From an uncultured Thermoanaerobaculia bacterium (GTDB taxonomy: Bacteria; Acidobacteriota; Thermoanaerobaculia; Thermoanaerobaculales; Sulfomarinibacteraceae), in contig CAZSTH010000001.1 of the NCBI GenBank assembly GCA_964609835.1, positions 34,087 through 98,086 on the forward strand: 64,000 nt of DNA, in the 5' to 3' direction. The position numbers and the translations under genes are program-made. The notes beneath the pieces are model-generated. The model searched no databases. It was not told the origin of the DNA and saw only the letters and a program-made list of their open reading frames with translations. Below, piece after piece: positions 50,515 through 62,550 of the stretch (positions are counted from its first letter, which is position 1; each line of letters opens with the position of its first letter).

Positions 50515-53500
50515 ATGGGACCCCCCGAAGGTACCGAACCCACTTTCGAAGATCTCCGGGAACGGCCGCCGGCCGAAGCTGCCGGCGTCATCGCGCGCCA
50601 GCTGGTGGACGAAGACGCCCCACAGCGCCGGGACAGCCGACTGGTCGACCTCCTGGACGACCGCCGAGCCGGCGACCAGATCCTGGAGCACCTGCCGTTG
50701 GAGGCGCTGGAAACCCTGGCTCGGCGGTGTGCGGGGCGGTTGGATCCGTCGAGTCCGGAGCCGTCGAGCAACGCCGTCGCATGGCAGCTGCTGGACGTCC
50801 TCCGAAGGCGGGAGGTGCTGGTCCGGATCGCCGCGGACGGGACCGTCGACAGCTGGGCGGAGCTGCTGCTCGAGCTGGTGGAACGGTCGCACTTCACCTT
50901 CGCGCGCCTCTTCCAGCAGCGTGCCGCGGGCTACGGCGAGCGGCCCCTCTTCGAGCTTCCCGCCAACGGCGGCAGCCGCAAGGTCAGCTGGCGGCAAGCC
51001 TCGGGACGGGTCGACCTGATCGCCCGATCTCTGCTCGCGCTCACCGCAGCCACCGGACAGCAGCCGGTGGGCATCCTGTCCCGGAACCGGCTCGACATGG
51101 CGCTCGTCGATCTCGCCTGCCTGACCAGCGGCATCGTCAATGTCGTGGTACCGGCCAATGCGACCGAGACCGACGTCGCATTCATCCTCGAACACGCCGA
51201 TGTCGGTGCCGTCGTGGTCTCCGACCGCGAGCAGGTCCAGAAGATCCTCAACGTTCGTGATCGGCTGCCACGGCTGGGACCGTTGGTGGCCCTCGACCCC
51301 GCGGCGGCCGGGCGTCACGGCGCGATCGCCTTCGAGCAGCTGATGGCAAGATCGTCGGAGGTGGCACCGGAGCAGCTCGAGGAGCGCCGGAGCGCGCAGC
51401 GCGTCGACGACCTGGCGACCGTCATGTACACCTCGGGAACCACCGGCACCCCAAAGGGCATCTGCTTCACCCAGCGCAACATCGTGTCCAAGCGCTTCGC
51501 GCGGGCGCTCGCGCTGCCGGAGATCGGCGAGGGCGACCGCTTCCTCTGTTATCTACCGCTCTTCCACACCTTCGGCCGATTCCTCGAGATGACCGGCTGC
51601 GTGTTCTGGGGCGCCACCTACTGCTTCGCAGACGATCCGAGTGTCGAGACCCTGACGCGGCAGATGCGTGGCCTGGGCACCACGGTCTTCATCAGCGTGC
51701 CGATGAAGTGGATGCAGCTCTACGATCTCGTGCGGCAGAGCGTGGATGTGGTGGCGGCAACCGACGACGAGATCCGGACCGCCCTGCGCGAGGTGACCGG
51801 ACCCGCACTGCGTTGGGGCCTGTCCGCCGCCGGCTACCTCGACCCTGAGGTCTTCCACTTCTTCCAGCGCAACGGTGTCGAGCTGATGAGCGGCTTCGGC
51901 ATGACCGAAGCCACCGGCGGCATCACCATGACCCCGCCCGGGCACTACAAGGACGACTCGCTCGGGCCCGCGCTTCCCGGCGTCGAAACCGACCTCGCGG
52001 CCGACGGGGAGATGGTGATCCGCGGCCCGTATGTGATGCGCGGCTACCTCGACCCTCCGGACGGAGTGCCGTCCTTCGACGACCGCGGCTGGTTCCATAC
52101 CGGCGACCTCATGGAGCGCGACGAGGACGGCTACTACCGGATCGTCGACCGCAAAAAGGAGATCTACAAGAACATCCACGGCGAGACCATCGCCCCGCAG
52201 AAGATCGAGAACCTCTTCCGGGACTTCGACTCGGTGGGCAGGGTCTTCCTCGTCGGCGACCACCGTCCCTACAACACGGCCCTCGTCTATCCCAACCCTG
52301 AGTTCGAGGAGATCGACCTGGCGTCGCTTTCGCCCAATGATCTGAAGGACCACTTCAGGTCGTTGGTGGTGAGCGCCAACTCCTTCCTGGCGCCGTACGA
52401 GCGGATCATCGACTTCGCCATCATCGACCGCGACTTCGACGCCGACCGCGGCGAACTCACGCCCAAGGGCACCTACCGGCGCAAGAACATCGAGCGCGCC
52501 TTTTCCGACCGCATCAGCCTCCTCTACCGGCGCCGCACGCTGACGGTCGGCGGCGCGAACGTGGTGGTGCCCAACTGGTTCTTCCAGGCGCTGGGCATGA
52601 CGGCCCAGGATCTCATCGTCGACGGTGACGAGCTTCGGCTGCGGTCCGAGGGCACCACGCTGGCCATCCGCGCCGAGGGCGAGGGCGCGGTCAGGGTCGG
52701 CTCGGTGGTCTACACCCTGCAGCAGAAGGCCGTCGACCTCGGTCATCTCCTCTCGATTCCCCGCCTGTGGCTCGGCAACGAGGCGCTGGTTGGCTTCGCA
52801 CCGCTCGCCCCCGAGCAGCGCAACCGCCGCCGGCGGCGGCGGGTGTCCGCAGAATGGCTGCGGCGCACCAGTCCCTATCGCGCGAGAACCGCCGACGGTG
52901 ACGCCATCTCCGCGCTGATGAGGCGCCAGGAGGCGGAGCTCCGCGACGTCCACCAGGCCGCGCTCCTGCTGGCGAGCGACGACGAGGGGGTGGCGGTGCA
53001 GGCGGTCAGGATCCTTGACCACCTCCTTCACATCGACGACAGCGGGCTCAACGATTTCACGCTCAGGATCCTGCGGCGAGCGGCGGACTCACCGCTTGGC
53101 CGCGTCCGCCAGCGTGCCTTCCAGGTCCTGGCGTCGGTGGAGCTCGACTCCCGGTACCGGAACACACTGGCTCGCTTCTTCGACAACGGCCACAACGTCC
53201 TCGATGCCGAGACCATCTCGGTGCTCGTCGACCGCGACCTCACCTCCCACCAGATCGAATGCTTCATCGCCGAGGCCGAGTCGCGGTGGATCCGCGGCGC
53301 CGGCGGCGGCGCCGACTACGACGTCGTCCGCGCCATGTGTGCCTTTCTCGCCCGTTACGGTGCGGCACATCCGAGCCAGTATCGCCGCCTCCGAGGCTTC
53401 TTCACGCGATCGATGATGATCGCCTCCGACCAAACCGCTCGGGACATGGCGGCGGCCGGCAAGCGCGAGCTCGCCGACGGCTTCCGGCTGTGGCTCGGCG

Positions 53501-55269
53501 CCCCGTCCCGGGTCGCGGTCGACCCCGAGACCGACCTCGAGTACCGCTGGGAAGACGTCGTCGAGTTCTCTGACGAGGTGGACACCGAAACCAGGGACCG
53601 GATCCTCGACGCCTTGCGGACCACGCCGGTGTTGCGCGAGGCTTCGTTCCTGATCGGCACCGCTGCGCGACCGGTTCGGCTCGAGGACATCCTCCCTGGC
53701 GGCGTCTGGGTCCGCCTCCTCGGCACCTCTCACGGCAAGTCGGTCTATCGAGTCGCCGTGCGAACCCGCGACCGGGAGCAGTTCGACCTCGCCCTCAACC
53801 TCAACCACGACCTCTCTCCCGACGACGTTCAGGAGGAGATCAACTGGCTGATCGTCTGCAGCGAAAGCAACGGGCGCGGCCCCTTGGTGGAGGTCTTCGG
53901 CGGGTGGTGGCACGAACATCATCTGTGGACCGAGGAGTTCATTCCCGGAGAGACGCTCGACAGGGCGCTGGCGCGGCTCGCGCGCAAGCATGCCGAACAG
54001 CCGGAGCGGATGACCCTGTGGTGGCCCTTCGCAGCCTGGGCGGCCGTCAGCGCCTACGTCGACTTCTGGAACCGCACCGGGCGTCGCCTGGTGGTGGCGG
54101 ATCCCTCGCCTGCGAACGTCATTGTCCCGCTGCACGACTACCACACCGGAGCGCGGCTGGTGTCGATCTCCTCGCGCGCTCCCTTCGACTCCCTTCCGAC
54201 CATGCTGCGGAGCTTCCAACACCATTTCATCGCGCCGGCCGAGGCGGCTCACCCGGAGCTTCGGGGCCTCGCCGGGTGGCAGGTCCTGTTCTCGGCGGTG
54301 CTCGAGGTGATCGGCGTCGAGGGCGGCGCCGCCGAGCTGCGGGCGGTCCTCGAAGCCTCAACCAGCGAGGATGCCGAGATGGCAGCCAGCCTCGAGGAGT
54401 TCCTGAGCGCGGTCGGAAAGCGCGGCTTCCTGCCGCGGAGGCTCTTCTTCGCTGCCAAGCGATACCACCGCTGGGAGGAGCTCAACCCCGACGCCACCTT
54501 GAGCGCTCGCGCGAGGACCCTCCAGGAGATCTACCAGACCTACGACCTCGGCGAGCTGGACGCAGTTTTACCGGAGGCGAGAGCGCGCTTCTTCCGCGAG
54601 ACCGTGCTGCAGAACGCCTGCGGCGAGCTGGTGGCCGGGCTCGAGGAGCTGATCAGCCGGCTCCGCTGTGCCGAGCTCGCTCGGGACGAGATGAGCGCCG
54701 CGGTTGCCGACCTGCGCGCCCACCTCTCGCTCGCGCCGGAGGAGGACTACTTCCTCGCCCGCCTCTCCTATCCCCATCTCCGCCCGGACGACGAGGCCGA
54801 GTACGTCGAGGCGGCAGCCGGGGGCATCCAGCAGAGCGAGATGGTGGTCACGCACGAGGACTCCGAAGGCATGCGCTATCAGATCCGCCACGCCCTCAGC
54901 GCCAAGGAGGTGGGGCGCCTCCACCGGCTGTTCCTGACCGCCAAGCTGCCAGTCCAGTTCCGGCCGGAGCATCGTTTTCTGGTCGCCATCAGCGATCGCG
55001 GTAACCTCATCGGCGGGCTGTTTTACGAGCTCGAACCCGAGGCTCAAACCGCCCACATGGACAAGATCGTGGTCGCCGACGCGTTCCACGGGCGGGGCAT
55101 CGCTGCCAATTTGCTGGAGGAGCTCAAGCACCGGCTTCGAACCGGCGGGTGCGGCGCGCTAACCACGGGCTTCTTCCGCCCTCAGTTCTTCTACCGGATG
55201 GGTTTTAGCGTCGAGCGCCGCTACGCCGGGCTGTACCTCTCGCTGGTGGACGGCGGCGGGGAGGGGTGA
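50515..55269 (+). CDS. 1584-aa multidomain protein: acyl-adenylate-forming ligase (FACL-like) / helical and kinase-like middle region / C-terminal GNAT acyltransferase
   Basis: AMP-binding motifs MYTSGTTGTPKG, GFGMTEATG, GWFHTGDL and DRKKEIYK in the first ~690 aa. The middle contains EEFIPGETLD...VVADPSPANVIVP, resembling ABC1/UbiB-type kinases. The end has VADAFHGRGIAANLLEELK...MGF (GNAT). Confidence 0.85.
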   Translation: MGPPEGTEPTFEDLRERPPAEAAGVIARQLVDEDAPQRRDSRLVDLLDDRRAGDQILEHLPLEALETLARRCAGRLDPSSPEPSSNAVAWQLLDVLRRREVLVRIAADGTVDSWAELLLELVERSHFTFARLFQQRAAGYGERPLFELPANGGSRKVSWRQASGRVDLIARSLLALTAATGQQPVGILSRNRLDMALVDLACLTSGIVNVVVPANATETDVAFILEHADVGAVVVSDREQVQKILNVRDRLPRLGPLVALDPAAAGRHGAIAFEQLMARSSEVAPEQLEERRSAQRVDDLATVMYTSGTTGTPKGICFTQRNIVSKRFARALALPEIGEGDRFLCYLPLFHTFGRFLEMTGCVFWGATYCFADDPSVETLTRQMRGLGTTVFISVPMKWMQLYDLVRQSVDVVAATDDEIRTALREVTGPALRWGLSAAGYLDPEVFHFFQRNGVELMSGFGMTEATGGITMTPPGHYKDDSLGPALPGVETDLAADGEMVIRGPYVMRGYLDPPDGVPSFDDRGWFHTGDLMERDEDGYYRIVDRKKEIYKNIHGETIAPQKIENLFRDFDSVGRVFLVGDHRPYNTALVYPNPEFEEIDLASLSPNDLKDHFRSLVVSANSFLAPYERIIDFAIIDRDFDADRGELTPKGTYRRKNIERAFSDRISLLYRRRTLTVGGANVVVPNWFFQALGMTAQDLIVDGDELRLRSEGTTLAIRAEGEGAVRVGSVVYTLQQKAVDLGHLLSIPRLWLGNEALVGFAPLAPEQRNRRRRRRVSAEWLRRTSPYRARTADGDAISALMRRQEAELRDVHQAALLLASDDEGVAVQAVRILDHLLHIDDSGLNDFTLRILRRAADSPLGRVRQRAFQVLASVELDSRYRNTLARFFDNGHNVLDAETISVLVDRDLTSHQIECFIAEAESRWIRGAGGGADYDVVRAMCAFLARYGAAHPSQYRRLRGFFTRSMMIASDQTARDMAAAGKRELADGFRLWLGAPSRVAVDPETDLEYRWEDVVEFSDEVDTETRDRILDALRTTPVLREASFLIGTAARPVRLEDILPGGVWVRLLGTSHGKSVYRVAVRTRDREQFDLALNLNHDLSPDDVQEEINWLIVCSESNGRGPLVEVFGGWWHEHHLWTEEFIPGETLDRALARLARKHAEQPERMTLWWPFAAWAAVSAYVDFWNRTGRRLVVADPSPANVIVPLHDYHTGARLVSISSRAPFDSLPTMLRSFQHHFIAPAEAAHPELRGLAGWQVLFSAVLEVIGVEGGAAELRAVLEASTSEDAEMAASLEEFLSAVGKRGFLPRRLFFAAKRYHRWEELNPDATLSARARTLQEIYQTYDLGELDAVLPEARARFFRETVLQNACGELVAGLEELISRLRCAELARDEMSAAVADLRAHLSLAPEEDYFLARLSYPHLRPDDEAEYVEAAAGGIQQSEMVVTHEDSEGMRYQIRHALSAKEVGRLHRLFLTAKLPVQFRPEHRFLVAISDRGNLIGGLFYELEPEAQTAHMDKIVVADAFHGRGIAANLLEELKHRLRTGGCGALTTGFFRPQFFYRMGFSVERRYAGLYLSLVDGGGEG

Positions 55270-56144
55270 TGTCCGGAATCACGATCCGACGTGCGGGAAG
55301 GCTCTTCGATAGCCTCGAGAGCCGGTGGCTGAAGATGGCGACCCAGCGCCGGATCGCGTCGTCGCTGGTGGTGGCCTTCGTGATCGCCCTGCTGCTGGTG
55401 GAGCTGCGGCGTCTCGGCCCGCTCCCGGCGACGATGGAGCGCTGGCTGCCGAGCAACCACTTCGAGGCGATCCTGGTGCCCTTCACTCTGCTGCTGCTCG
55501 CGGAGGTCGTGTCGCTGGTCTTCGCGCTCGCCCAGTCGGTGGCGATGGCTGTCGGCAAGCAGCTGGAGATCATGTCGCTGATTCTGATCCGTCAGTCATT
55601 CAAGGAGCTCACCTTTCTCCCCGAGCCGATCGTGTGGGATCTCTCCTCGGCGGAGGTCACCCGCCGAGTGCTCTACATTCTCTCGGACTCCGCCGGCGCC
55701 CTCGTGATCTTCGGGCTGCTGGTGGTCTACTTCAGGCTCCAGGCCCACCAACCCATCTCGCAGGACCCCGACGAGCGCTCGAGCTTCGTAGGCGCCAAGA
55801 AGCTGATCGCGCTGGTGTTGCTTGCCAGCATCGTCGTCATCGGCGGCGAGGTTGTGTGGGCGTGGGTGGTCGGGGCCGGAGCTCCCTCGTTCTTCGAGAT
55901 CTTCTACACCGTGCTGATCTTCGCCGACGTCTTCATCGTCCTCACCTCGCTGCGCTACAGCGTCGCCTACGCCGTCGTCTTCCGCTACTTCGGCTTCGCG
56001 GTGGCGACCGTCCTGATCCGCCTCGCGCTCACCGCACCGCGCATCGTCGACGCCGGCCTCGGGGTGGCGGCAACCCTGTTCGCGATCGCGCTCACCTGGG
56101 TCTACAACAAGACCATGGCGGCGGTCGCGGAAGCCACCACCTGA
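55266..56144 (+). CDS. integral membrane protein of unknown function, translationally coupled to the giant ligase/GNAT gene
   Basis: The start (GTG 55266 or ATG 55269) overlaps stop TGA 55267..55269. About 6 TM segments. No family recognised. Confidence 0.7.
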   Translation: MMSGITIRRAGRLFDSLESRWLKMATQRRIASSLVVAFVIALLLVELRRLGPLPATMERWLPSNHFEAILVPFTLLLLAEVVSLVFALAQSVAMAVGKQLEIMSLILIRQSFKELTFLPEPIVWDLSSAEVTRRVLYILSDSAGALVIFGLLVVYFRLQAHQPISQDPDERSSFVGAKKLIALVLLASIVVIGGEVVWAWVVGAGAPSFFEIFYTVLIFADVFIVLTSLRYSVAYAVVFRYFGFAVATVLIRLALTAPRIVDAGLGVAATLFAIALTWVYNKTMAAVAEATT

Positions 56145-56224: not shown

Positions 56225-59200
56225 CTACCGATAACCGAACAGCATGGTGTAGACGATCAGCGCGATCAGGGTCAGGCCGATGCCGAGCGCCGTGAAGCCG
56301 ATGATCCTGGCGGCGCGCGCCAGTCCGGGATGGGCGGGCCCGGCGATCCGCTCCTCGAGCTGCTCGGGAGTCGCCCGGCCGATGAACTCGTCATACTCGG
56401 CAGGCTTGTCGTGCTTGAGCTCCTCGACGCCGACCCGACCGGTGAAGATCACCGGGTCCATCGGGAACTTGTCCGGGCGGAAGTGCGTGTTGAAGAAGTG
56501 GATGGTGAAGATGAAGGCGACCGCCAGCAGGGCCTCGTCGGAGTGGATGATGGTGGCGACGTTGATCGCCCAACCCGGCAAAACGATGGTGAAGAGCTCG
56601 GGGAACCACAGCACGAGGCCGGTGGAACCGATCACGAAAACGCCCCAGAAGACCGCAAAGTAGTCGAACTTCTCCCAGTAGGTGTAGCGCCCGTAGACCG
56701 GTCGCGGACCGCGGCCGAAGAACCAGCGAATCGACTCGAAGACCTGACGGATGTCGGTGAAGTTGAACATCAACGAGTTTTTGTCGAAGATGAAACCGAA
56801 CAGGCCCTTGCCCGAGCCGCGGAAGCCGTGCCACAGCTGGCGCAGGTGGTAGAGGAAGAGCACCGACAGGACGACGGCGCCGATGCGGTGCAGCAGCGCC
56901 ATGGTGTCGAAGCCCCCGAACAGCTGCGAAACGACCATCGCCCAGCCCATGTACGAGAACTTGAGCGCCATGCCGGTCAGCGCGAGCGTGAAGAAGCTGA
57001 CGATCATCACGAAGTGCATGATGCGCTGGGTGAGCGAGAAGCGGCGGTAGAAGCGGGTCTCTGCGGCATTCTTGTGGGCGATCCACTGCTCCTTCGTTCG
57101 CCACAGCCGGAACAGCCACAACATCGTGTGGAGGATGGCGAAGCTCAAGGTCCCCACCAGCAGCGTGGTCATGAAGATGAACGTCCAGTACAGGAACGGG
57201 TACTTGTCCTTGTCGTGGTGGGTCGCGTGGGTCAGGTAGCCCGCGAACTGGCGATGGGCCTTGGGGTGGCAGGTGGCGCAGGTCGCGACCACGTTCCAGT
57301 GGCTGAGGGTGGACTCGGGATCGTCCGACGGCAGGATGTTGTGGGTGCCGTGGCAGTCGTAGCACTTGGCCGCACCCTCGGAGCCGAGTTGCGTGATCTT
57401 GCCGTGATGGGTGTCGAAGAAGGTCTCGGCGAAGTCCTCGTGGCATTGACCGCACTGGTTCATCATCATGAAGCGGAAGCCCTGAGCATCGACCCGCGTG
57501 ATCTCGTGCGACATGTGGCAGCTCTCGCAGGTGGGTAGCTGCTCGGTCGTCGTGACGTTGTCAGGCCAGTGGATCGAGGCACGAAACTCCTCCTCGATCC
57601 CCTTGTGGCAGGCGCCGCATGTGGAGGTGATGTTGGCGGGGTTGACCGACGAGCCGGGATCGTCCTGCGGCAGCGCGGTGTGCGCAGTGTGGCAATCGAC
57701 GCAGCTCGCCGACACCACCAGGCCGCTGCCGATCAGTCCCCGTCCGTGCGTGCTTTCGAGATAGGTCTCGAAGATGTCGCGGTCGTCGCCAAGCCGCTCG
57801 GCCGCCGCCTTTCCGGCAGCGTGGCAGGCCCCGCACAATTCGGGGACGTTGCGGGCGTAGGTCGGCGAGGTCGGCAGCCGGTAGCCGGTCGTCGCGTGGG
57901 AGTCGCCGTGGCAGCTCTCGCAGGTCGGCGCGTCGGCGTCGCCGGCCGCCGCGAGCTGGCCGTGGCGGCTGAGGTCGTGCTCCTGCACCTGCTGCGCGTG
58001 GCAGATCGCGCAGTCCACCGGTGATTCGATGGTTGCGCACGCGCGCTCCGGGTGGCCGGGCGCCACCTCGGTGTGGCATTGGGCGCAGGCGACGGCGGCA
58101 TGCTCCGACAAGCCCAGGACCTCCTGGTCGATGAAGAGCGACACCGTGGTGCCGTCGCGAATCGTTTCCAGCTCCGGGTTCCCGTGGCACTCGAGGCAGC
58201 GCCGCGAGCTCGCCTCCCGCGGCGAGATCGGACGGCGACGGATCTTGTGCGGCTGGTGGCACTCGACGCACGACGGGATCTTGTGGGGCTCCTCCTCCCA
58301 CAGCCGTCCCTCGACGACCTTGACGTGGACCTCCTCGATCCTCGCGTGGCACTGCATGCACATCCCGGCCACGTTCTCGCGGGCGATCGACGACGCCGGG
58401 TTGTTGTGGTCGAGAATGTCGTGGGCGGTGTGGCACGAGGTGCAGACCGCGGTCACCGTCAGACCCTTCTCGAACAACGCCTCGCCGTGGACCGACATCG
58501 AGAAGTTCTCGAGGATCCGGTCCTGCGGGATCTCGTGCTGCAGCGACACCTCGGTGCCCTCGCGATGGCAGCGGCCGCACAGCAGCGGCACGTTGACCAC
58601 GTTGGTGGGTGCCTGCGGATCCGTGTGGGGCAGGATCGCGTGGTGGTCGTGGCAGATGATGCAGTTGGGGGCGACCGGATCGCCTTTGACCGCCGCGCGA
58701 CCGTGCAGCGACGCGCGGTTCTGCGCCGCCACCTCGGCGTGGCACTCTCCGCAGGCCTGGATCTGTGCCAGCGGTTCCACCGGCGCCACGACCTCGTGGC
58801 CGCTGTGGCAGTCGACACAGGTGGCCGCGGAGCGGCCGCTGACGACCTTCGCGTGGGGGCTGCGATCCACCTGTTGGAGAGCCCGGGCGTGACAGCGCGC
58901 GCACAGCGAGTCGACCCGGGAACCGTGGGTCCGCGCCTCGGTGTCCGAGGATGACCGCACGTCGTGGGTGCCGTGGCAGCTCGTGCACGCGGCGGCCGGC
59001 GAGGTCGGGTCCCGCGCCCAGCTCCGGTGCGGACCCGCGGCCAGCTCCGCCGCCATGTCGTCGTGGCACATGGCGCAATCCACCGCTTCCAGCTCCTCGC
59101 CGTGCGGCAGCTCCGCTCCGTCGAGCTCCATGTGGCAGTCGATGCACGCGAAGTCGGCGTGCACCGACGCGGCATAGCCGGCCGGATGAACGAAAACGGA

Positions 59201-59377
59201 GACCTCGGCGCCACCACGAAAGCCGGTCAGGTCGGGGTCTTCGTGGCACATCAAGCAGTCGTCGTTCTCCTGCGCGCGGACTGGGGAGACCCATCCGATG
59301 AGCACGATGCACGTCAACACCACGAACGCGCGGACCGCAGCCCCGTGGGGATTGATGCTGGCGCCTCGACCGATCAT
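56225..59377 (-). CDS. 23-haem c-type cytochrome fused to a C-terminal dihaem-type cytochrome b membrane domain (CbcL-like architecture)
   Basis: I counted 23 CxxCH motifs after a signal peptide (…WVSPVRA/QEND). The C-terminus has 5-6 TM segments with an FdnI/HydC-like pattern (RFSLTQRIMHF..LTG, LLHRIG, IIHSDEA, FTIHFFNTHF). Start set to ATG 59377, preceded by GGAGGAGGCGAGGAG; the ORF-track start is 59431. Confidence 0.9.
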   Translation of the reverse strand: MIGRGASINPHGAAVRAFVVLTCIVLIGWVSPVRAQENDDCLMCHEDPDLTGFRGGAEVSVFVHPAGYAASVHADFACIDCHMELDGAELPHGEELEAVDCAMCHDDMAAELAAGPHRSWARDPTSPAAACTSCHGTHDVRSSSDTEARTHGSRVDSLCARCHARALQQVDRSPHAKVVSGRSAATCVDCHSGHEVVAPVEPLAQIQACGECHAEVAAQNRASLHGRAAVKGDPVAPNCIICHDHHAILPHTDPQAPTNVVNVPLLCGRCHREGTEVSLQHEIPQDRILENFSMSVHGEALFEKGLTVTAVCTSCHTAHDILDHNNPASSIARENVAGMCMQCHARIEEVHVKVVEGRLWEEEPHKIPSCVECHQPHKIRRRPISPREASSRRCLECHGNPELETIRDGTTVSLFIDQEVLGLSEHAAVACAQCHTEVAPGHPERACATIESPVDCAICHAQQVQEHDLSRHGQLAAAGDADAPTCESCHGDSHATTGYRLPTSPTYARNVPELCGACHAAGKAAAERLGDDRDIFETYLESTHGRGLIGSGLVVSASCVDCHTAHTALPQDDPGSSVNPANITSTCGACHKGIEEEFRASIHWPDNVTTTEQLPTCESCHMSHEITRVDAQGFRFMMMNQCGQCHEDFAETFFDTHHGKITQLGSEGAAKCYDCHGTHNILPSDDPESTLSHWNVVATCATCHPKAHRQFAGYLTHATHHDKDKYPFLYWTFIFMTTLLVGTLSFAILHTMLWLFRLWRTKEQWIAHKNAAETRFYRRFSLTQRIMHFVMIVSFFTLALTGMALKFSYMGWAMVVSQLFGGFDTMALLHRIGAVVLSVLFLYHLRQLWHGFRGSGKGLFGFIFDKNSLMFNFTDIRQVFESIRWFFGRGPRPVYGRYTYWEKFDYFAVFWGVFVIGSTGLVLWFPELFTIVLPGWAINVATIIHSDEALLAVAFIFTIHFFNTHFRPDKFPMDPVIFTGRVGVEELKHDKPAEYDEFIGRATPEQLEERIAGPAHPGLARAARIIGFTALGIGLTLIALIVYTMLFGYR

Positions 59378-59418
59378 CTCCTCGCCTCCTCCGCGCCCGA
59401 TCCCTCGAGCTCCCGCCG

Positions 59419-59447
59419 AATGTATCTTCATGTGACGAATTATTCAA
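59419..59447 (-). promoter_or_regulatory. putative sigma-70-type promoter TTGAAT-17-TACATT for the 23-haem gene
   Basis: On the minus strand the -35 is at 59447..59442 and the -10 at 59424..59419, in the most AT-rich stretch of the divergent intergenic region. Confidence 0.35.
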
Positions 59448-59660
59448 GTTTGTCGTTTGCGGCGAATTGAGATAAAGACTCTTTTCAATAACCGGTTCCT
59501 GAGCCTCCGGGACGCTTTCGCGATCAGGGACCGTGTCGGGCGGCGTTCGATCGCCGATCCTGGACCCTCGCCACCGGTTCCACAGGGCGGTCTGGTCCAC
59601 GCGGCACCGGTGATGGTATTCTCCGGTCACGGTCGAGCAAATGTGCAAGGGAGAGCCGTC

Positions 59661-61118
59661 GTGATCCGAGATTTCCTGGACCGCCGAGGCCCCGGCAAGC
59701 TGTTCAATTACGCCAACAACCTCGTCACGATCACGGGAACCGTCCTGACCACGATGACGGGGCTGCTGATCGTCATCTTCGTCGTGGTGCAGTTCTTCGG
59801 CCACCTCGACAACCCCTACATCGGAATCTTCGCCTACCTGGTCCTCCCCGTGTTCTTCGTCGCGGGTTTGCTCATGATTCCCGCCGGAATGTGGTGGCGC
59901 CGCCGACGCCTGGTTCGCAGCGGCGCCTCCGCCGCCGAACGCTCCGCCTACCCGACCCTCGATTTCAACCGGCCGGAGATCCGACGCATCGCGCTCGTGG
60001 TGCTGGGGCTGACCGTCATCAACATCGTGATCCTCGGGTCGGCCTCCCTGTTCGCCGTCGAGCACATGGAGACCGTCCGGTTCTGCGGCGAAACCTGCCA
60101 CACCGTGATGCAGCCGGAGTACACGGCCTACCAGAAATCCCCCCACTCCCGGGTCGCCTGCGTCGACTGCCACATCGGGCCCGGGACATCGTGGTTCGTC
60201 AAATCCAAGCTCGACGGCCTCCGCCAGGTCTGGCGAACGGCTCTCGACAGCTACGACCGGCCGATTTCGACGCCGCTGCACACCCTGCGCCCGGCGCGGG
60301 AGACCTGCGAACAATGCCACTGGCCGACCAAGCATTTCGGCGACAAGCTACGGATCTTCTCGCGCACGGCCAGCGACGAGGCGAACACGCCGTCCTACAC
60401 CGCGCTGCTGCTCAAGACCGGCGGCGGCAGCCTCGACCTCGGTCGCCACGGCGGCATCCACTGGTGGCACATCTACTCCGACAATCGCATCCGATACGTC
60501 TCCGACGAGTCGCGGGATCACATCAGCTGGGTGGAGCTCCGTACCGCCGCGGGCGAGGTGCGAACCTACACGAGAGACGGCGACCCGCCACCCTCACCGG
60601 CGGAGATCGAAGCAGCCAAGATCATGGACTGCGTCGACTGCCACAATCGTCCGACCCACACATTTCCAGTCCCCGCAAAGGCCGTCGACAGCCTCCTCGA
60701 CACCCATCCGCGGCTCCGGTCTCTGCCCTATTTCAAGCGCGAGGCGGTGGCGGCAATCGAGGGCGAGTACCCGACCCGCGCGGACGGTATCGCGGCCGTG
60801 ACCTCAGCGCTCGAAGAGTTCTACCGGCAACAGTATCCAAGCCTCGCCACGACCGACTGGGAGATCATCCGGTCCGCGGCGCGGCAGGCGGCAGAGATCT
60901 ACGGGCGCATCGTGTTTCCGGCCATGGACACCGATTGGGAAACTCATCCCAACCACATCGGACACGACGACTTCCCCGGCTGCTGGCGCTGCCACGACGA
61001 CGAGATGTCGACGTCGGACGGCGAGCACTCGATCCCGATGGATTGCGAGAATTGCCATGTCTTCCTGGTCCAGGACAGCCCGAACGCTCCCGAGTTCGCG
61101 TATGCGCTCGAAGAGTGA
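59661..61118 (+). CDS. membrane-anchored hexahaem c-type cytochrome (NapC/NirT-related, ImcH-like layout)
   Basis: Three N-terminal TM helices, then CGETCH, CVDCH, CEQCH, CVDCH, CWRCH and CENCH. Start set to GTG 59661 with an AAGGGAGAG SD; alternatives are ATG 59613 or 59457. Confidence 0.85.
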   Translation: MIRDFLDRRGPGKLFNYANNLVTITGTVLTTMTGLLIVIFVVVQFFGHLDNPYIGIFAYLVLPVFFVAGLLMIPAGMWWRRRRLVRSGASAAERSAYPTLDFNRPEIRRIALVVLGLTVINIVILGSASLFAVEHMETVRFCGETCHTVMQPEYTAYQKSPHSRVACVDCHIGPGTSWFVKSKLDGLRQVWRTALDSYDRPISTPLHTLRPARETCEQCHWPTKHFGDKLRIFSRTASDEANTPSYTALLLKTGGGSLDLGRHGGIHWWHIYSDNRIRYVSDESRDHISWVELRTAAGEVRTYTRDGDPPPSPAEIEAAKIMDCVDCHNRPTHTFPVPAKAVDSLLDTHPRLRSLPYFKREAVAAIEGEYPTRADGIAAVTSALEEFYRQQYPSLATTDWEIIRSAARQAAEIYGRIVFPAMDTDWETHPNHIGHDDFPGCWRCHDDEMSTSDGEHSIPMDCENCHVFLVQDSPNAPEFAYALEE

Positions 61119-61398
61119 GGGCCGCGTGCTCAAAACGCGAGCAGCGTCCTGACACGCCGGTATTGTCGCGCCGGTTGCCGTTCGAAAACGGCGGGGGTCG
61201 GTTGTCTTGGCGTCTATCCGCGTTTATTTTGCACGGCGTACCCTAGGACACCTCCGCGCAAATCTATGATTTCCTGAGCCTTGCCGGAGAAGCGTTGGTT
61301 CCCTCCCCAGGAGCGGGACAGTTCCCATCTGAGTTTCCGGGTGGGTACGTGCTAGTCTCAATAATCGGAGAGGGAATTCTCCCTGGGGGCGCACCGAG

Positions 61399-62550
61399 AT
61401 GGAGTGGTTGGAGCAGAACATCGATGCCTACCGCATCGTGTCCGAAATTCTGGGTCAGCTGCGGATCGCCGTCCGCGAGGGCCTGGAGCGGGCGTACGCC
61501 GATGACTGGTTCCGTGAGGGCCTTCCGCAGGAAGTCTTCGACCGGCTGGTTGCCGCCAAGGAGCGTGAAAAGTCGATCGACTGGTACGAGGGCCAGTACC
61601 AGCAGATCATGGACTACGCGACCTTTCCAGACCTGATCCAGATCCTCGAGAAGAACTCCGACCTGTTTCCCGCGTTCGTCGGCCTCGCCCCCAGCCCGGC
61701 CCTCCTCCACGCCCGCTTCCTCGAGCTTGACGTCATGCGCGCCAAGCTCGGGCGCGCCCGCCCCATCAGCGAGACCGAGCTGTCGTTCCTCGGAACCTTC
61801 CACCTCCGTTTCCGCAAGGCCGTTGCGGAGGCCAATGCGGAAGGTCCCGACGATGCGCCCCCGAAGGTCCACGAGGTGCCCCGCTCCGAATCCCCGGGCG
61901 ACGACGAGAAGGTGCCGCCGACGTCCGCGAAACAGAAGGGCCCTGGCCGCGACGAGCCGACCCGGCCGCAACGGCCGGCGTCCATTTCGGCTCCTGACGA
62001 GGCGGATGAGAAAAAGAAGAAAAGGAAGAAGAAGGCCGCCTCCGAGGAGGACGACATTCCGACCAAGGAGATCTCGTCTTCGGACGCGGACCGCACGGCG
62101 GCGGGCGAGGACCTGGACGACGGCGACGACGACCGCGACGCTGAAGACCAGGAGGCCACCGGCTCCGATCTCGAGGAAGAGGCCTCTCCTCGCGAGGCGC
62201 CCGCGACCGTCACCACCAAGATCAGCGACGCGCTCGAAGACAACAACCACGTCGAGATCCTCCGCCATCTCTACCGGGAGGTGACCCGGATCGCCGAGGG
62301 GGTGTGGAGCAACGAGACGACACCGGCGCCGCTGATCTGGGAGCAGGTCACGGCCAGCGACTGGTACGAGCGCAACTTCTCACGTCTCGGGCTGCAGCCG
62401 TTGTCCGCGTTCTACGACGTAGCGGCCAAGATCGAGGCCAGAACCCGCGATGGCATCGACAAGAAACAACTCCAGGAGCTCCTCAAGGACTCCAACTTCG
62501 CGCGCACGCTGCTCCAGCTCAGGGACATGTTCCAGGCCAACGACATCTGA
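61399..62550 (+). CDS. Swt1-like-HEPN-related protein with central highly charged disordered region
   Basis: The N-terminal LRIAVREGLERAYADDWFREGLPQEVFDRL...MDYATFPDLIQILEKNSDLF...LDVMRAKLGRARPISETE resembles the Swt1-like HEPN pattern, but RAKLGR replaces RNxxAH. The middle contains EKKKKRKKKAASEEDD within D/E-rich tracts. Confidence 0.65.
   Translation: MEWLEQNIDAYRIVSEILGQLRIAVREGLERAYADDWFREGLPQEVFDRLVAAKEREKSIDWYEGQYQQIMDYATFPDLIQILEKNSDLFPAFVGLAPSPALLHARFLELDVMRAKLGRARPISETELSFLGTFHLRFRKAVAEANAEGPDDAPPKVHEVPRSESPGDDEKVPPTSAKQKGPGRDEPTRPQRPASISAPDEADEKKKKRKKKAASEEDDIPTKEISSSDADRTAAGEDLDDGDDDRDAEDQEATGSDLEEEASPREAPATVTTKISDALEDNNHVEILRHLYREVTRIAEGVWSNETTPAPLIWEQVTASDWYERNFSRLGLQPLSAFYDVAAKIEARTRDGIDKKQLQELLKDSNFARTLLQLRDMFQANDI

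Follow-up and report, generated by a model that had tools for sequence, protein, structure and literature searches.

Two divergent genes, each encoding a membrane-anchored multihaem protein, occupy positions 56225-61118 of a 64-kb window of DNA (64,000 nucleotides of contig CAZSTH010000001.1) from an uncultured Thermoanaerobaculia bacterium, with a spacer of low guanine-plus-cytosine (GC) content between them. By its sequence, the plus-strand product (59661..61118; 485 residues) is a six-haem member of the ImcH family, and the minus-strand product (56225..59377; 1050 residues) is a 23-haem cytochrome c::b fusion, apparently of the CbcL/MtoC/MtrH type. No other open reading frame (ORF) within the whole window has two or more CxxCH motifs. 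Geobacter employs both of these families of inner-membrane cytochromes to move respiratory electrons out of its membrane. A preliminary description of this DNA had recognised a divergent pair of inner-membrane multihaem proteins here, and both genes are indeed present on opposite strands. Across bacterial genomes, the linkage between imcH and c::b genes is frequent, far from random and not obligate. What we regard as established is that the proteins belong to their families at the level of sequence, that the linkage is conserved, and that the c::b gene has a promoter kept among relatives; we lean towards reading the pair as two parallel quinol oxidases.

The linkage is best seen from the imcH side. 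Relatives of the plus-strand protein occur at at least 597 loci when one genome per species is counted, and the best 80 of these, 41-73% identical to it, were analysed. They come from Thermoanaerobaculia, Holophagae, Terriglobia, Vicinamibacteria, Woeseiaceae, other Gammaproteobacteria, Myxococcales, Binatia and others. A homologous gene with a cytochrome b domain is present at 55 of the 80 loci, which bears out the co-conservation in related genomes that had been proposed as a check on the pair. It lies no more than 250 bp from imcH in 46 cases, and 12 loci have two such genes. The other 25 loci have no b-domain gene; about ten of them have at least one flank shorter than 1.5 kb, and many have full flanks. 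The c::b neighbours carry 9, 11, 13, 19 or 23 haems, b-domain identity is 29-80%, and the partner subfamily varies by lineage.

Gene arrangement varies too. The divergent order with a 23-haem c::b fusion is that of the window's clade. Many Acidobacteriota and Gammaproteobacteria have co-directional genes with the c::b gene, mostly for an 11-haem fusion, upstream of imcH, and in Terriglobia the co-directional c::b gene, mostly for a 13-haem fusion, lies downstream. Two loci are convergent, with a 9- or 19-haem fusion, while a few have separate c and b genes. Woeseiaceae-type loci (L053, L029, L049 and L069) have a three-gene cluster consisting of a 19-haem c::b gene, an 11-haem c::b gene and imcH. 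In L053 (772-7091) this cluster is tight and co-directional, with gaps of 35 and 143 bp, and both of its fusions match PF01292, as does the shorter fusion of L029. Several junctions are tighter still, with an ATGA stop/start overlap in L019, gaps of 1-2 nucleotides in L022 and L076, and overlaps of 17-37 nucleotides in L031 and L071. Overlapping or near-abutting junctions of this kind are, on sequence grounds, the pattern of genes translated together.

Not all of these loci count equally. Within the Thermoanaerobaculales/Sulfomarinibacteraceae clade the whole neighbourhood is syntenic, including an AMP-ligase/GNAT gene, a gene for a membrane protein, one for an unknown protein and an SLT-domain gene, so that loci from the window's own clade are not independent evidence for linkage. 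The distant loci are independent evidence because their flanks are unrelated: the pair is adjacent in Terriglobia, Vicinamibacteria, Woeseiaceae, Steroidobacteraceae, Binatia and Desulfuromonadia, in differing orders and orientations. The reverse test, made from the 23-haem protein on metagenome contigs, found a divergent imcH 129-305 bp upstream in all six informative close relatives. Among wider relatives with 19-23 haems, where a c::b locus was taken as informative if it had at least 2.5 kb on both sides, imcH was present at 25 loci and absent from 19 (19/44, about 43%).

Other partners were observed beside imcH. Two loci (L082 3652-7044, Geotalea toluenoxydans BBCJ01000020.1; L084 3425-6828) have a Geobacteraceae-type imcH without an adjoining cbcL. 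At both, imcH stands back to back, at about 300 bp, with genes for a small multihaem cytochrome c, a 4Fe-4S ferredoxin-like protein and an NrfD-type membrane subunit, a three-gene NrfD-type cluster that represents another quinone-interacting module. At three loci from Myxococcales and Bryobacteraceae (L013 7090-9831, L014 5854-8565, L036 11657-13831), imcH has no b neighbour and is adjoined by a gene for a 9-10-haem protein. In L013 and L036 this protein has MtrC/MtrF-like domains and is likely a cell-surface cytochrome.

The published record already contains data on this linkage. Full-text literature searches gave no explicit statement that imcH and cbcL-type genes commonly adjoin, although the figures of Zhong and Shi (PMC6295460) may show such cases. 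Cross-matching Tables S2 and S3 of that study gives consecutive ImcH and CbcL locus tags in three Desulfuromonadia-type metagenome-assembled genomes (MAGs; A2X79_01185/01190, A2X96_02395/02390 and A2X92_08560/08565). In three further genomes the tags are no more than five gene positions apart, and in Geobacter isolates they are far apart. In a 2025 study of Desulfuromonas acetexigens, the ImcH homologue and the CbcL homologue have consecutive accessions, and expression on electrodes was reported for both. The preliminary description had stated that the two genes are not adjacent in Geobacter, which is true of G. sulfurreducens but does not extend to the wider Desulfuromonadia, as the consecutive tags and accessions show. 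The breadth of the linkage is the only modestly new point, and both proteins encoded in the window are new members of known families, with architectural forms that have already been catalogued.

The identity of the plus-strand protein is clear at the level of sequence. Its gene starts at GTG 59661, five nucleotides downstream of a ribosome-binding site, GGGAGAG (59649-59655), and an independent gene call in a public assembly collection gives the identical 485-residue product. The ImcH family is defined by three transmembrane (TM) helices, an atypical CxxxCH motif next to the membrane domain, and five to nine CxxCH motifs (Levar et al. 2014; Zhong and Shi 2018; PMC4251993, PMC6295460), and the protein has every sequence-level feature of a six-haem member. 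Hydropathy predicts three N-terminal TM segments (residues 21-50, 51-79 and 106-135), and an AlphaFold model has helices at residues 21-46, 52-86 and 105-136, in agreement with the three helices described before. We place the membrane anchor at 59721..60065 (TM1, residues 21-46; TM2, 52-79; TM3, 105-135). The TM helices, a block with a predicted local distance difference test (pLDDT) score of about 66-91, are the only part of the model that we use; its mean pLDDT is 63, and the haem-binding regions score below 50, as expected without cofactors. The arginine-rich loop between TM2 and TM3 implies, by the positive-inside rule, that the N terminus is cytoplasmic and the haem domain periplasmic.

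The six haem sites begin directly after TM3 with CGETCH (residues 142-147; 60084..60101), followed by CxxCH motifs at residues 167, 216, 324, 441 and 462 (60159..61058). The preliminary count of six haem sites was therefore correct, but these are not six CxxCH motifs; there are five, plus the one CxxxCH that is diagnostic of ImcH. Its residues C142, C146 and H147 are invariant in 69 of 69 homologues. Five conserved histidines outside the motifs in the same 69 homologues (162, 267, 270, 333 and 435) are candidate distal ligands, and by our own reckoning five is the number that would be needed for five bis-His haems and one His/Gln haem. Table S3 of Zhong and Shi (PMC6295460) lists six-site ImcH members from Anaeromyxobacter, Geothrix, Acidobacterium, Solibacter and 'bacterium HR10', and the motif positions of six-site members are nearly the same as here (for example, 143/167/216/323/439/459 in bacterium HR10).

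Residues around the first haem agree as well. Pimenta et al. (2023) place H137, E127, K173, Q179 and Y188 around haem 1 of G. sulfurreducens ImcH. Relative to H147, residues E137, K183, Q189 and Y198 of the present protein have the same offsets, with a constant difference of +10. Among the 69 homologues, K183 and Q189 are invariant, Y198 is 97% conserved, and position 137 is acidic (E or D). Conservation and offsets together mark K183, Q189 (60225-60227) and Y198, all encoded within 60159..61058, as putative quinol-site residues.

Overall similarity points the same way. PF03264 (NapC/NirT) matches residues 111-200 with 38.1 bits against a cut-off of 24.1 (1.6e-9), and the only solved relative is NrfH (2j7a_C; residues 109-223, E=1.1e-5). 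BLASTP against G. sulfurreducens ImcH gives 39% identity over residues 4-266 (E=2e-64), the reference being the first 275 residues of that protein as reconstructed from a machine-read alignment (supplement of Pimenta et al. 2023), reading errors included. Matches of 94% and 75% to Geobacteraceae proteins back the authenticity of this reference. When this reconstructed fragment served as the query of a protein search, most of the proteins retrieved were partial, and full-length Geobacter ImcH was not among them. The published identity range of non-Geobacter members to G. sulfurreducens ImcH is 31.5-49%, which includes the 39% seen here. In motifs, Pfam match, identity and quinol-site residues, the likeness to Geobacter ImcH first proposed from the sequence is thus upheld.

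A placement among the NrfH, TorC or NapC-NirT subgroups, which the preliminary description had raised as a possible objection, was rejected, with scores far below the NCBIfam cut-offs (TIGR03153, 48.5 against 134.2; TIGR02162, 32.5 against 478.2; TIGR02161, 18.6 against 310.6). No reductase gene adjoins the ImcH-type gene. On sequence, the protein lies outside the NapC/NirT subgroups linked to nitrite or trimethylamine N-oxide (TMAO) reductases.

The minus-strand protein has the layout of a CbcL/MtoC/MtrH-type fusion, a family in which a periplasmic c domain with 3-23 CxxCH motifs is joined to a C-terminal membrane domain. A signal peptide (59273-59377, minus strand) precedes a periplasmic domain with 23 CxxCH motifs (57266-59257), and a cytochrome b domain with about 5-6 TM helices, seen as hydrophobic segments after residue ~728, forms the C terminus (56228-57196). 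Both the 23 motifs and a C-terminal PF01292 match sustain the earlier description as a 23-haem c::b fusion. TIGR01583 (formate dehydrogenase gamma-like) matches at 1.7e-8, below its cut-off, and PF01292 is clearly above cut-off in the c::b neighbours of L010, L019 and L039. Further, five b-domain histidines (H750, H788, H830, H844 and H960) are invariant in all 38 imcH-linked c::b proteins compared, and H945 is present in 37. The spacing of the 23 haem motifs is almost identical to that of GBD91784.1, a 1034-residue protein with 23 haems that is the largest CbcL/MtoC/MtrH homologue listed by Zhong and Shi (PMC6295460 Table S2). A BLAST comparison of the 23-haem domain against itself found no significant internal repeats, and it is the periodic motif spacing alone that hints at tetrahaem modules.

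Two relatives have a broken or shortened c::b reading frame: in L003 (6515-9709) the b domain is separate, and L016 (6528-9500) has 20 haems. These may be assembly errors or cases of pseudogenisation. The promoter block described below is still present at both loci despite the damaged frames.

The c::b gene very probably starts at ATG 59377, giving the protein MIGRGASINPHGAAVRAFVVLTCIVLIGWVSPVRAQ (MIGRG...), instead of at 59431 as in the ORF list. The sequence GGAGGAGGCGAGGAG lies just upstream of this ATG, and six orthologues have start codons and ribosome-binding sites that align at the same place. With the 59431 start, the -10 hexamer of the proposed c::b promoter (59424-59419) would fall inside the gene. 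With the start at 59377, the divergent intergenic region is 283 bp long (59378..59660), not the 230 bp given earlier. Its GC content of 0.585-0.597, compared with 0.680 for the window, is in the lowest 1% (0.4-0.7%) among stretches of the same size. It had been called the most AT-rich stretch in this part of the window, and it does rank among the extremes, but the spacer between imcH and the gene downstream (61175-61457; GC 0.555-0.569) is slightly lower, and nowhere in the window is GC lower than there. Scanned against Rfam, the divergent spacer matched no family.

Both promoter motifs named in the preliminary description lie where it had placed them. The better candidate is a sigma-70-type promoter for the c::b gene on the minus strand (59419..59448), with a -35 element TTGAAT (59447-59442), a 17-nucleotide spacer and a -10 element TACATT (59424-59419), about 35 nucleotides upstream of ATG 59377. 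It matches the sigma-70 consensus at only 8 of 12 positions, and a scan of 59200-59900 for sigma-70 and terminator consensus sequences reported nothing, so the call is made purely from conservation. The candidate is contained in a 28-bp block, TGTATCnnnAnGTrrCGAAwTATTCAAG (59421-59448), that is exact in eight orthologous loci (L001-L005, L016, L089 and L090), in which the rest of the spacer is unalignable. Of the 15 closest 23-haem loci, 13 have the pattern TTGnnn-17-TAnnnT, normally as the sole match of this kind within 120 nucleotides of the c::b start. This is good comparative evidence that the candidate is a real promoter, as first suggested. The 17-nucleotide spacer is equally conserved, which hints at an overlapping regulator site.

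The counterpart for imcH is an extended -10 candidate, TGgTATTCT (59614..59622, plus strand), with a poor -35. It aligns with TTGTnC-17-(TGn)TAnnnT upstream of imcH in five relatives (L002, L004, L005, L007 and L016), but the window copy has diverged; the proposed promoter is plausible, and weaker than that of the c::b gene. The two candidates are back to back, about 150 bp apart, and between them nothing is conserved besides a small block, AATTGAGA (59465-59472). Since, in addition, only the c::b promoter block is strongly conserved, the single shared control region envisaged earlier is not supported. The spacer also holds three ACCGGT palindromes (59491-59496, 59573-59578 and 59606-59611), two of them near or over the imcH promoter. 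These are three of the 21 copies in 64 kb (P ~1e-4, calculated post hoc), and they are absent from the spacers of relatives; a role as lineage-specific operator sites is speculative. An operator common to both promoters was considered on account of a TGTATC...TTCAAG similarity in some relatives, and dropped when this was not seen in the window.

What might such a pair do? Quinol oxidation, the direction of electron flow, co-expression and potential-dependent use of the two proteins are all points that we infer. With moderate confidence, we favour two parallel quinol oxidases that are produced together, between which acceptor potential picks the route at the protein level, as in Geobacter. By analogy with NrfH and Geobacter ImcH, the ImcH-type protein would oxidise menaquinol at the periplasmic face next to haem 1, the CxxxCH haem with predicted His/Gln ligation, and electrons would then pass along the six haems into the periplasm. 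This step would be electroneutral, with protons and electrons both released to the periplasm. The c::b protein, in turn, would couple the quinol site of a HydC/FdnI-like dihaem cytochrome b to its 23-haem periplasmic chain. In this clade each gene would have its own promoter, back to back, and in other phyla both families would be expressed from one operon. Both exits would be constitutive, and the redox potential of the acceptor would decide which carries current.

Geobacter provides the precedent. Functionally, the ImcH family is characterised by menaquinol oxidation and by being required for extracellular acceptors of high potential. In Geobacter, expression of both imcH and cbcL is constitutive, and a change of potential shifts the use of the pathways within minutes; CbcL is reported to be inactivated by potential. 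Use of CbcL gives a lower growth yield. Geobacter ImcH has been measured as electroneutral, with protons released to the periplasm, and purified ImcH exchanges electrons with PpcA. The operon arrangements seen elsewhere fit joint production of both exits. Of the two modes of regulation previously suggested for the divergent pair, co-expression is argued for by the one-operon stop/start overlaps, but reciprocal regulation finds no support.

Several observations weigh against parallel, jointly produced oxidases. The minus-strand protein was assigned to the CbcL/MtoC/MtrH type from its architecture and the indirect haem-spacing match to GBD91784.1, and its PF01292 match is marginal (30.5 bits, with the cut-off at 30.1). 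In the window, imcH has a poorly formed promoter accompanied by lineage-specific palindromes, which leaves room for differential regulation. The 64-kb window contains no gene for an outer-membrane conduit or a periplasmic shuttle, so extracellular electron transfer by the pair is presumed. Finally, the tight operon coupling elsewhere would equally fit a physical complex.

Such a complex is the core of one alternative, which we consider unlikely: that the pair is one working unit, in which ImcH passes electrons to the c::b haem chain, or a heteromeric quinol-oxidising complex, making a single periplasm-spanning wire with two quinol sites. In its favour, linkage recurs in several phyla whichever of the two genes comes first, and it includes stop/start overlaps, a trait typical of subunits that are produced in a fixed ratio. 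Judged from haem count, a partner expanded to 19-23 haems could in principle reach across a large part of the periplasm. Nearby genes include none for a small periplasmic cytochrome, and Levar et al. called the partners of ImcH unknown. Yet imcH and c::b genes each often occur without the other (25 of 80 and 19 of 44 loci), and the partner subfamily changes with lineage, down to 29% b-domain identity. In Geobacter, genetics can separate the two, imcH forms a monocistronic unit, and the purified ImcH protein exchanges electrons with PpcA. A bolder version, to which we give little credence, is that ImcH- and CbcL-type genes were ancestrally, and are in most lineages, parts of a single linked quinol-oxidase module with two genes, or sometimes three, maybe even a physical complex with ImcH feeding the long haem wire of its c::b neighbour, from which the unlinked arrangement of G. 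sulfurreducens is a derived exception.

It is similarly improbable, in our estimation, that the pair takes no part in outward extracellular electron transfer, and instead feeds a soluble periplasmic reductase encoded elsewhere, or runs in reverse, reducing quinone during electron uptake from Fe(II), sulfur compounds or a partner cell. Both Fe(III) reducers and Fe(II) oxidisers have members of the CbcL/MtoC/MtrH family, NapC/NirT relatives normally serve periplasmic reductases, and the window has no porin-cytochrome or MtrC-like gene. Relatives of the source organism are described mainly as sulfur cyclers. Against this, the only role linked to ImcH homologues so far is quinol oxidation in metal reducers, imcH adjoins genes for MtrC/MtrF-like surface cytochromes in L013 and L036, marine Thermoanaerobaculia MAGs carry porin-cytochrome clusters elsewhere, and no terminal reductase gene adjoins the pair here. 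That adjacency is a by-product of conserved local gene order, devoid of functional meaning, is suggested by the synteny of the whole neighbourhood in the window's clade and contradicted by distant phyla with unrelated flanks and other orders and orientations, and we regard it as very improbable indeed.

ImcH and CbcL serve as marker genes for extracellular electron transfer in metagenomes. Outside Geobacter, imcH and c::b genes are usually neighbours, often in one operon, and in Acidobacteriota, Woeseiaceae and other groups that are abundant in sediment and soil this synteny gives a simple criterion by which such exits can be annotated. The linkage also argues that transcriptional co-expression combined with switching at the protein level may be the general design. 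A possible partnership between ImcH and c::b proteins could be tested in cultured carriers such as Lentisalinibacter orientalis YNA5901 (locus L027). For the window alone, two genes and one conserved promoter can be annotated with confidence.

Directly downstream of imcH in this clade is a gene (61399-62550, plus strand) for a 383-residue protein with no Pfam match, in which conserved N- and C-terminal domains are separated by a highly charged linker; in the rearranged locus L006 (8654-9961) its homologue is directly upstream of imcH on the same strand. On the other side, a plus-strand gene (50515-55269) encodes a 1584-residue fusion of an AMP-binding, acyl-CoA synthetase-like N-terminal part and a C-terminal GNAT acetyltransferase domain, with a long middle part to which no domain is assigned, and its synteny is kept in L002, L003, L004 and L016. 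The start of the next gene (55266-56144, plus strand), which is convergent to the c::b gene, overlaps the stop of this fusion. It encodes a 292-residue multi-pass membrane protein, again with no Pfam match, that is conserved in L004 and L016.

Compared with known systems, the plus-strand protein is closest to ImcH (GSU3259). The two share three N-terminal TM helices, a CxxxCH first haem motif directly after TM3, a NapC/NirT-like region over TM3 and haems 1-3, and conserved Lys, Gln and Tyr residues around haem 1. They differ in that ImcH of G. sulfurreducens has seven haem sites instead of six; the C-terminal seventh motif, which is missing here, is also missing in the listed homologues of Anaeromyxobacter, Geothrix, Acidobacterium and 'bacterium HR10'. 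Here the gene adjoins a c::b gene, whereas imcH of G. sulfurreducens is unlinked and monocistronic (Levar et al.). With NrfH of Desulfovibrio vulgaris (PDB 2j7a/2vr0), a TM helix and the first three haem motifs align, and the presumed quinol site is likewise near haem 1. In contrast to NrfH, NapC, NirT, TorC and CymA, however, the protein has not one but three TM helices, its haem 1 motif is CxxxCH, it carries an additional C-terminal domain of ~260 residues, and no reductase gene adjoins its own.

The minus-strand protein differs from CbcBA (GSU0593-0594), the split b plus c quinol oxidase of Geobacter, in having its domains fused. A CbcBA-like split form, with a separate cytochrome b gene beside a multihaem c gene, is found at imcH loci L022, L035, L047, L048 and L078; CbcB itself is reported to have no sequence homology to the b domain of CbcL. 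With CbcL (GSU0274), MtoC and MtrH, the fusion shares a signal peptide, a periplasmic multihaem c domain and a C-terminal HydC/FdnI-like cytochrome b domain with conserved histidines. It differs from CbcL in scale, with 23 haems instead of 9 and a periplasmic domain that is ~2.5 times longer.

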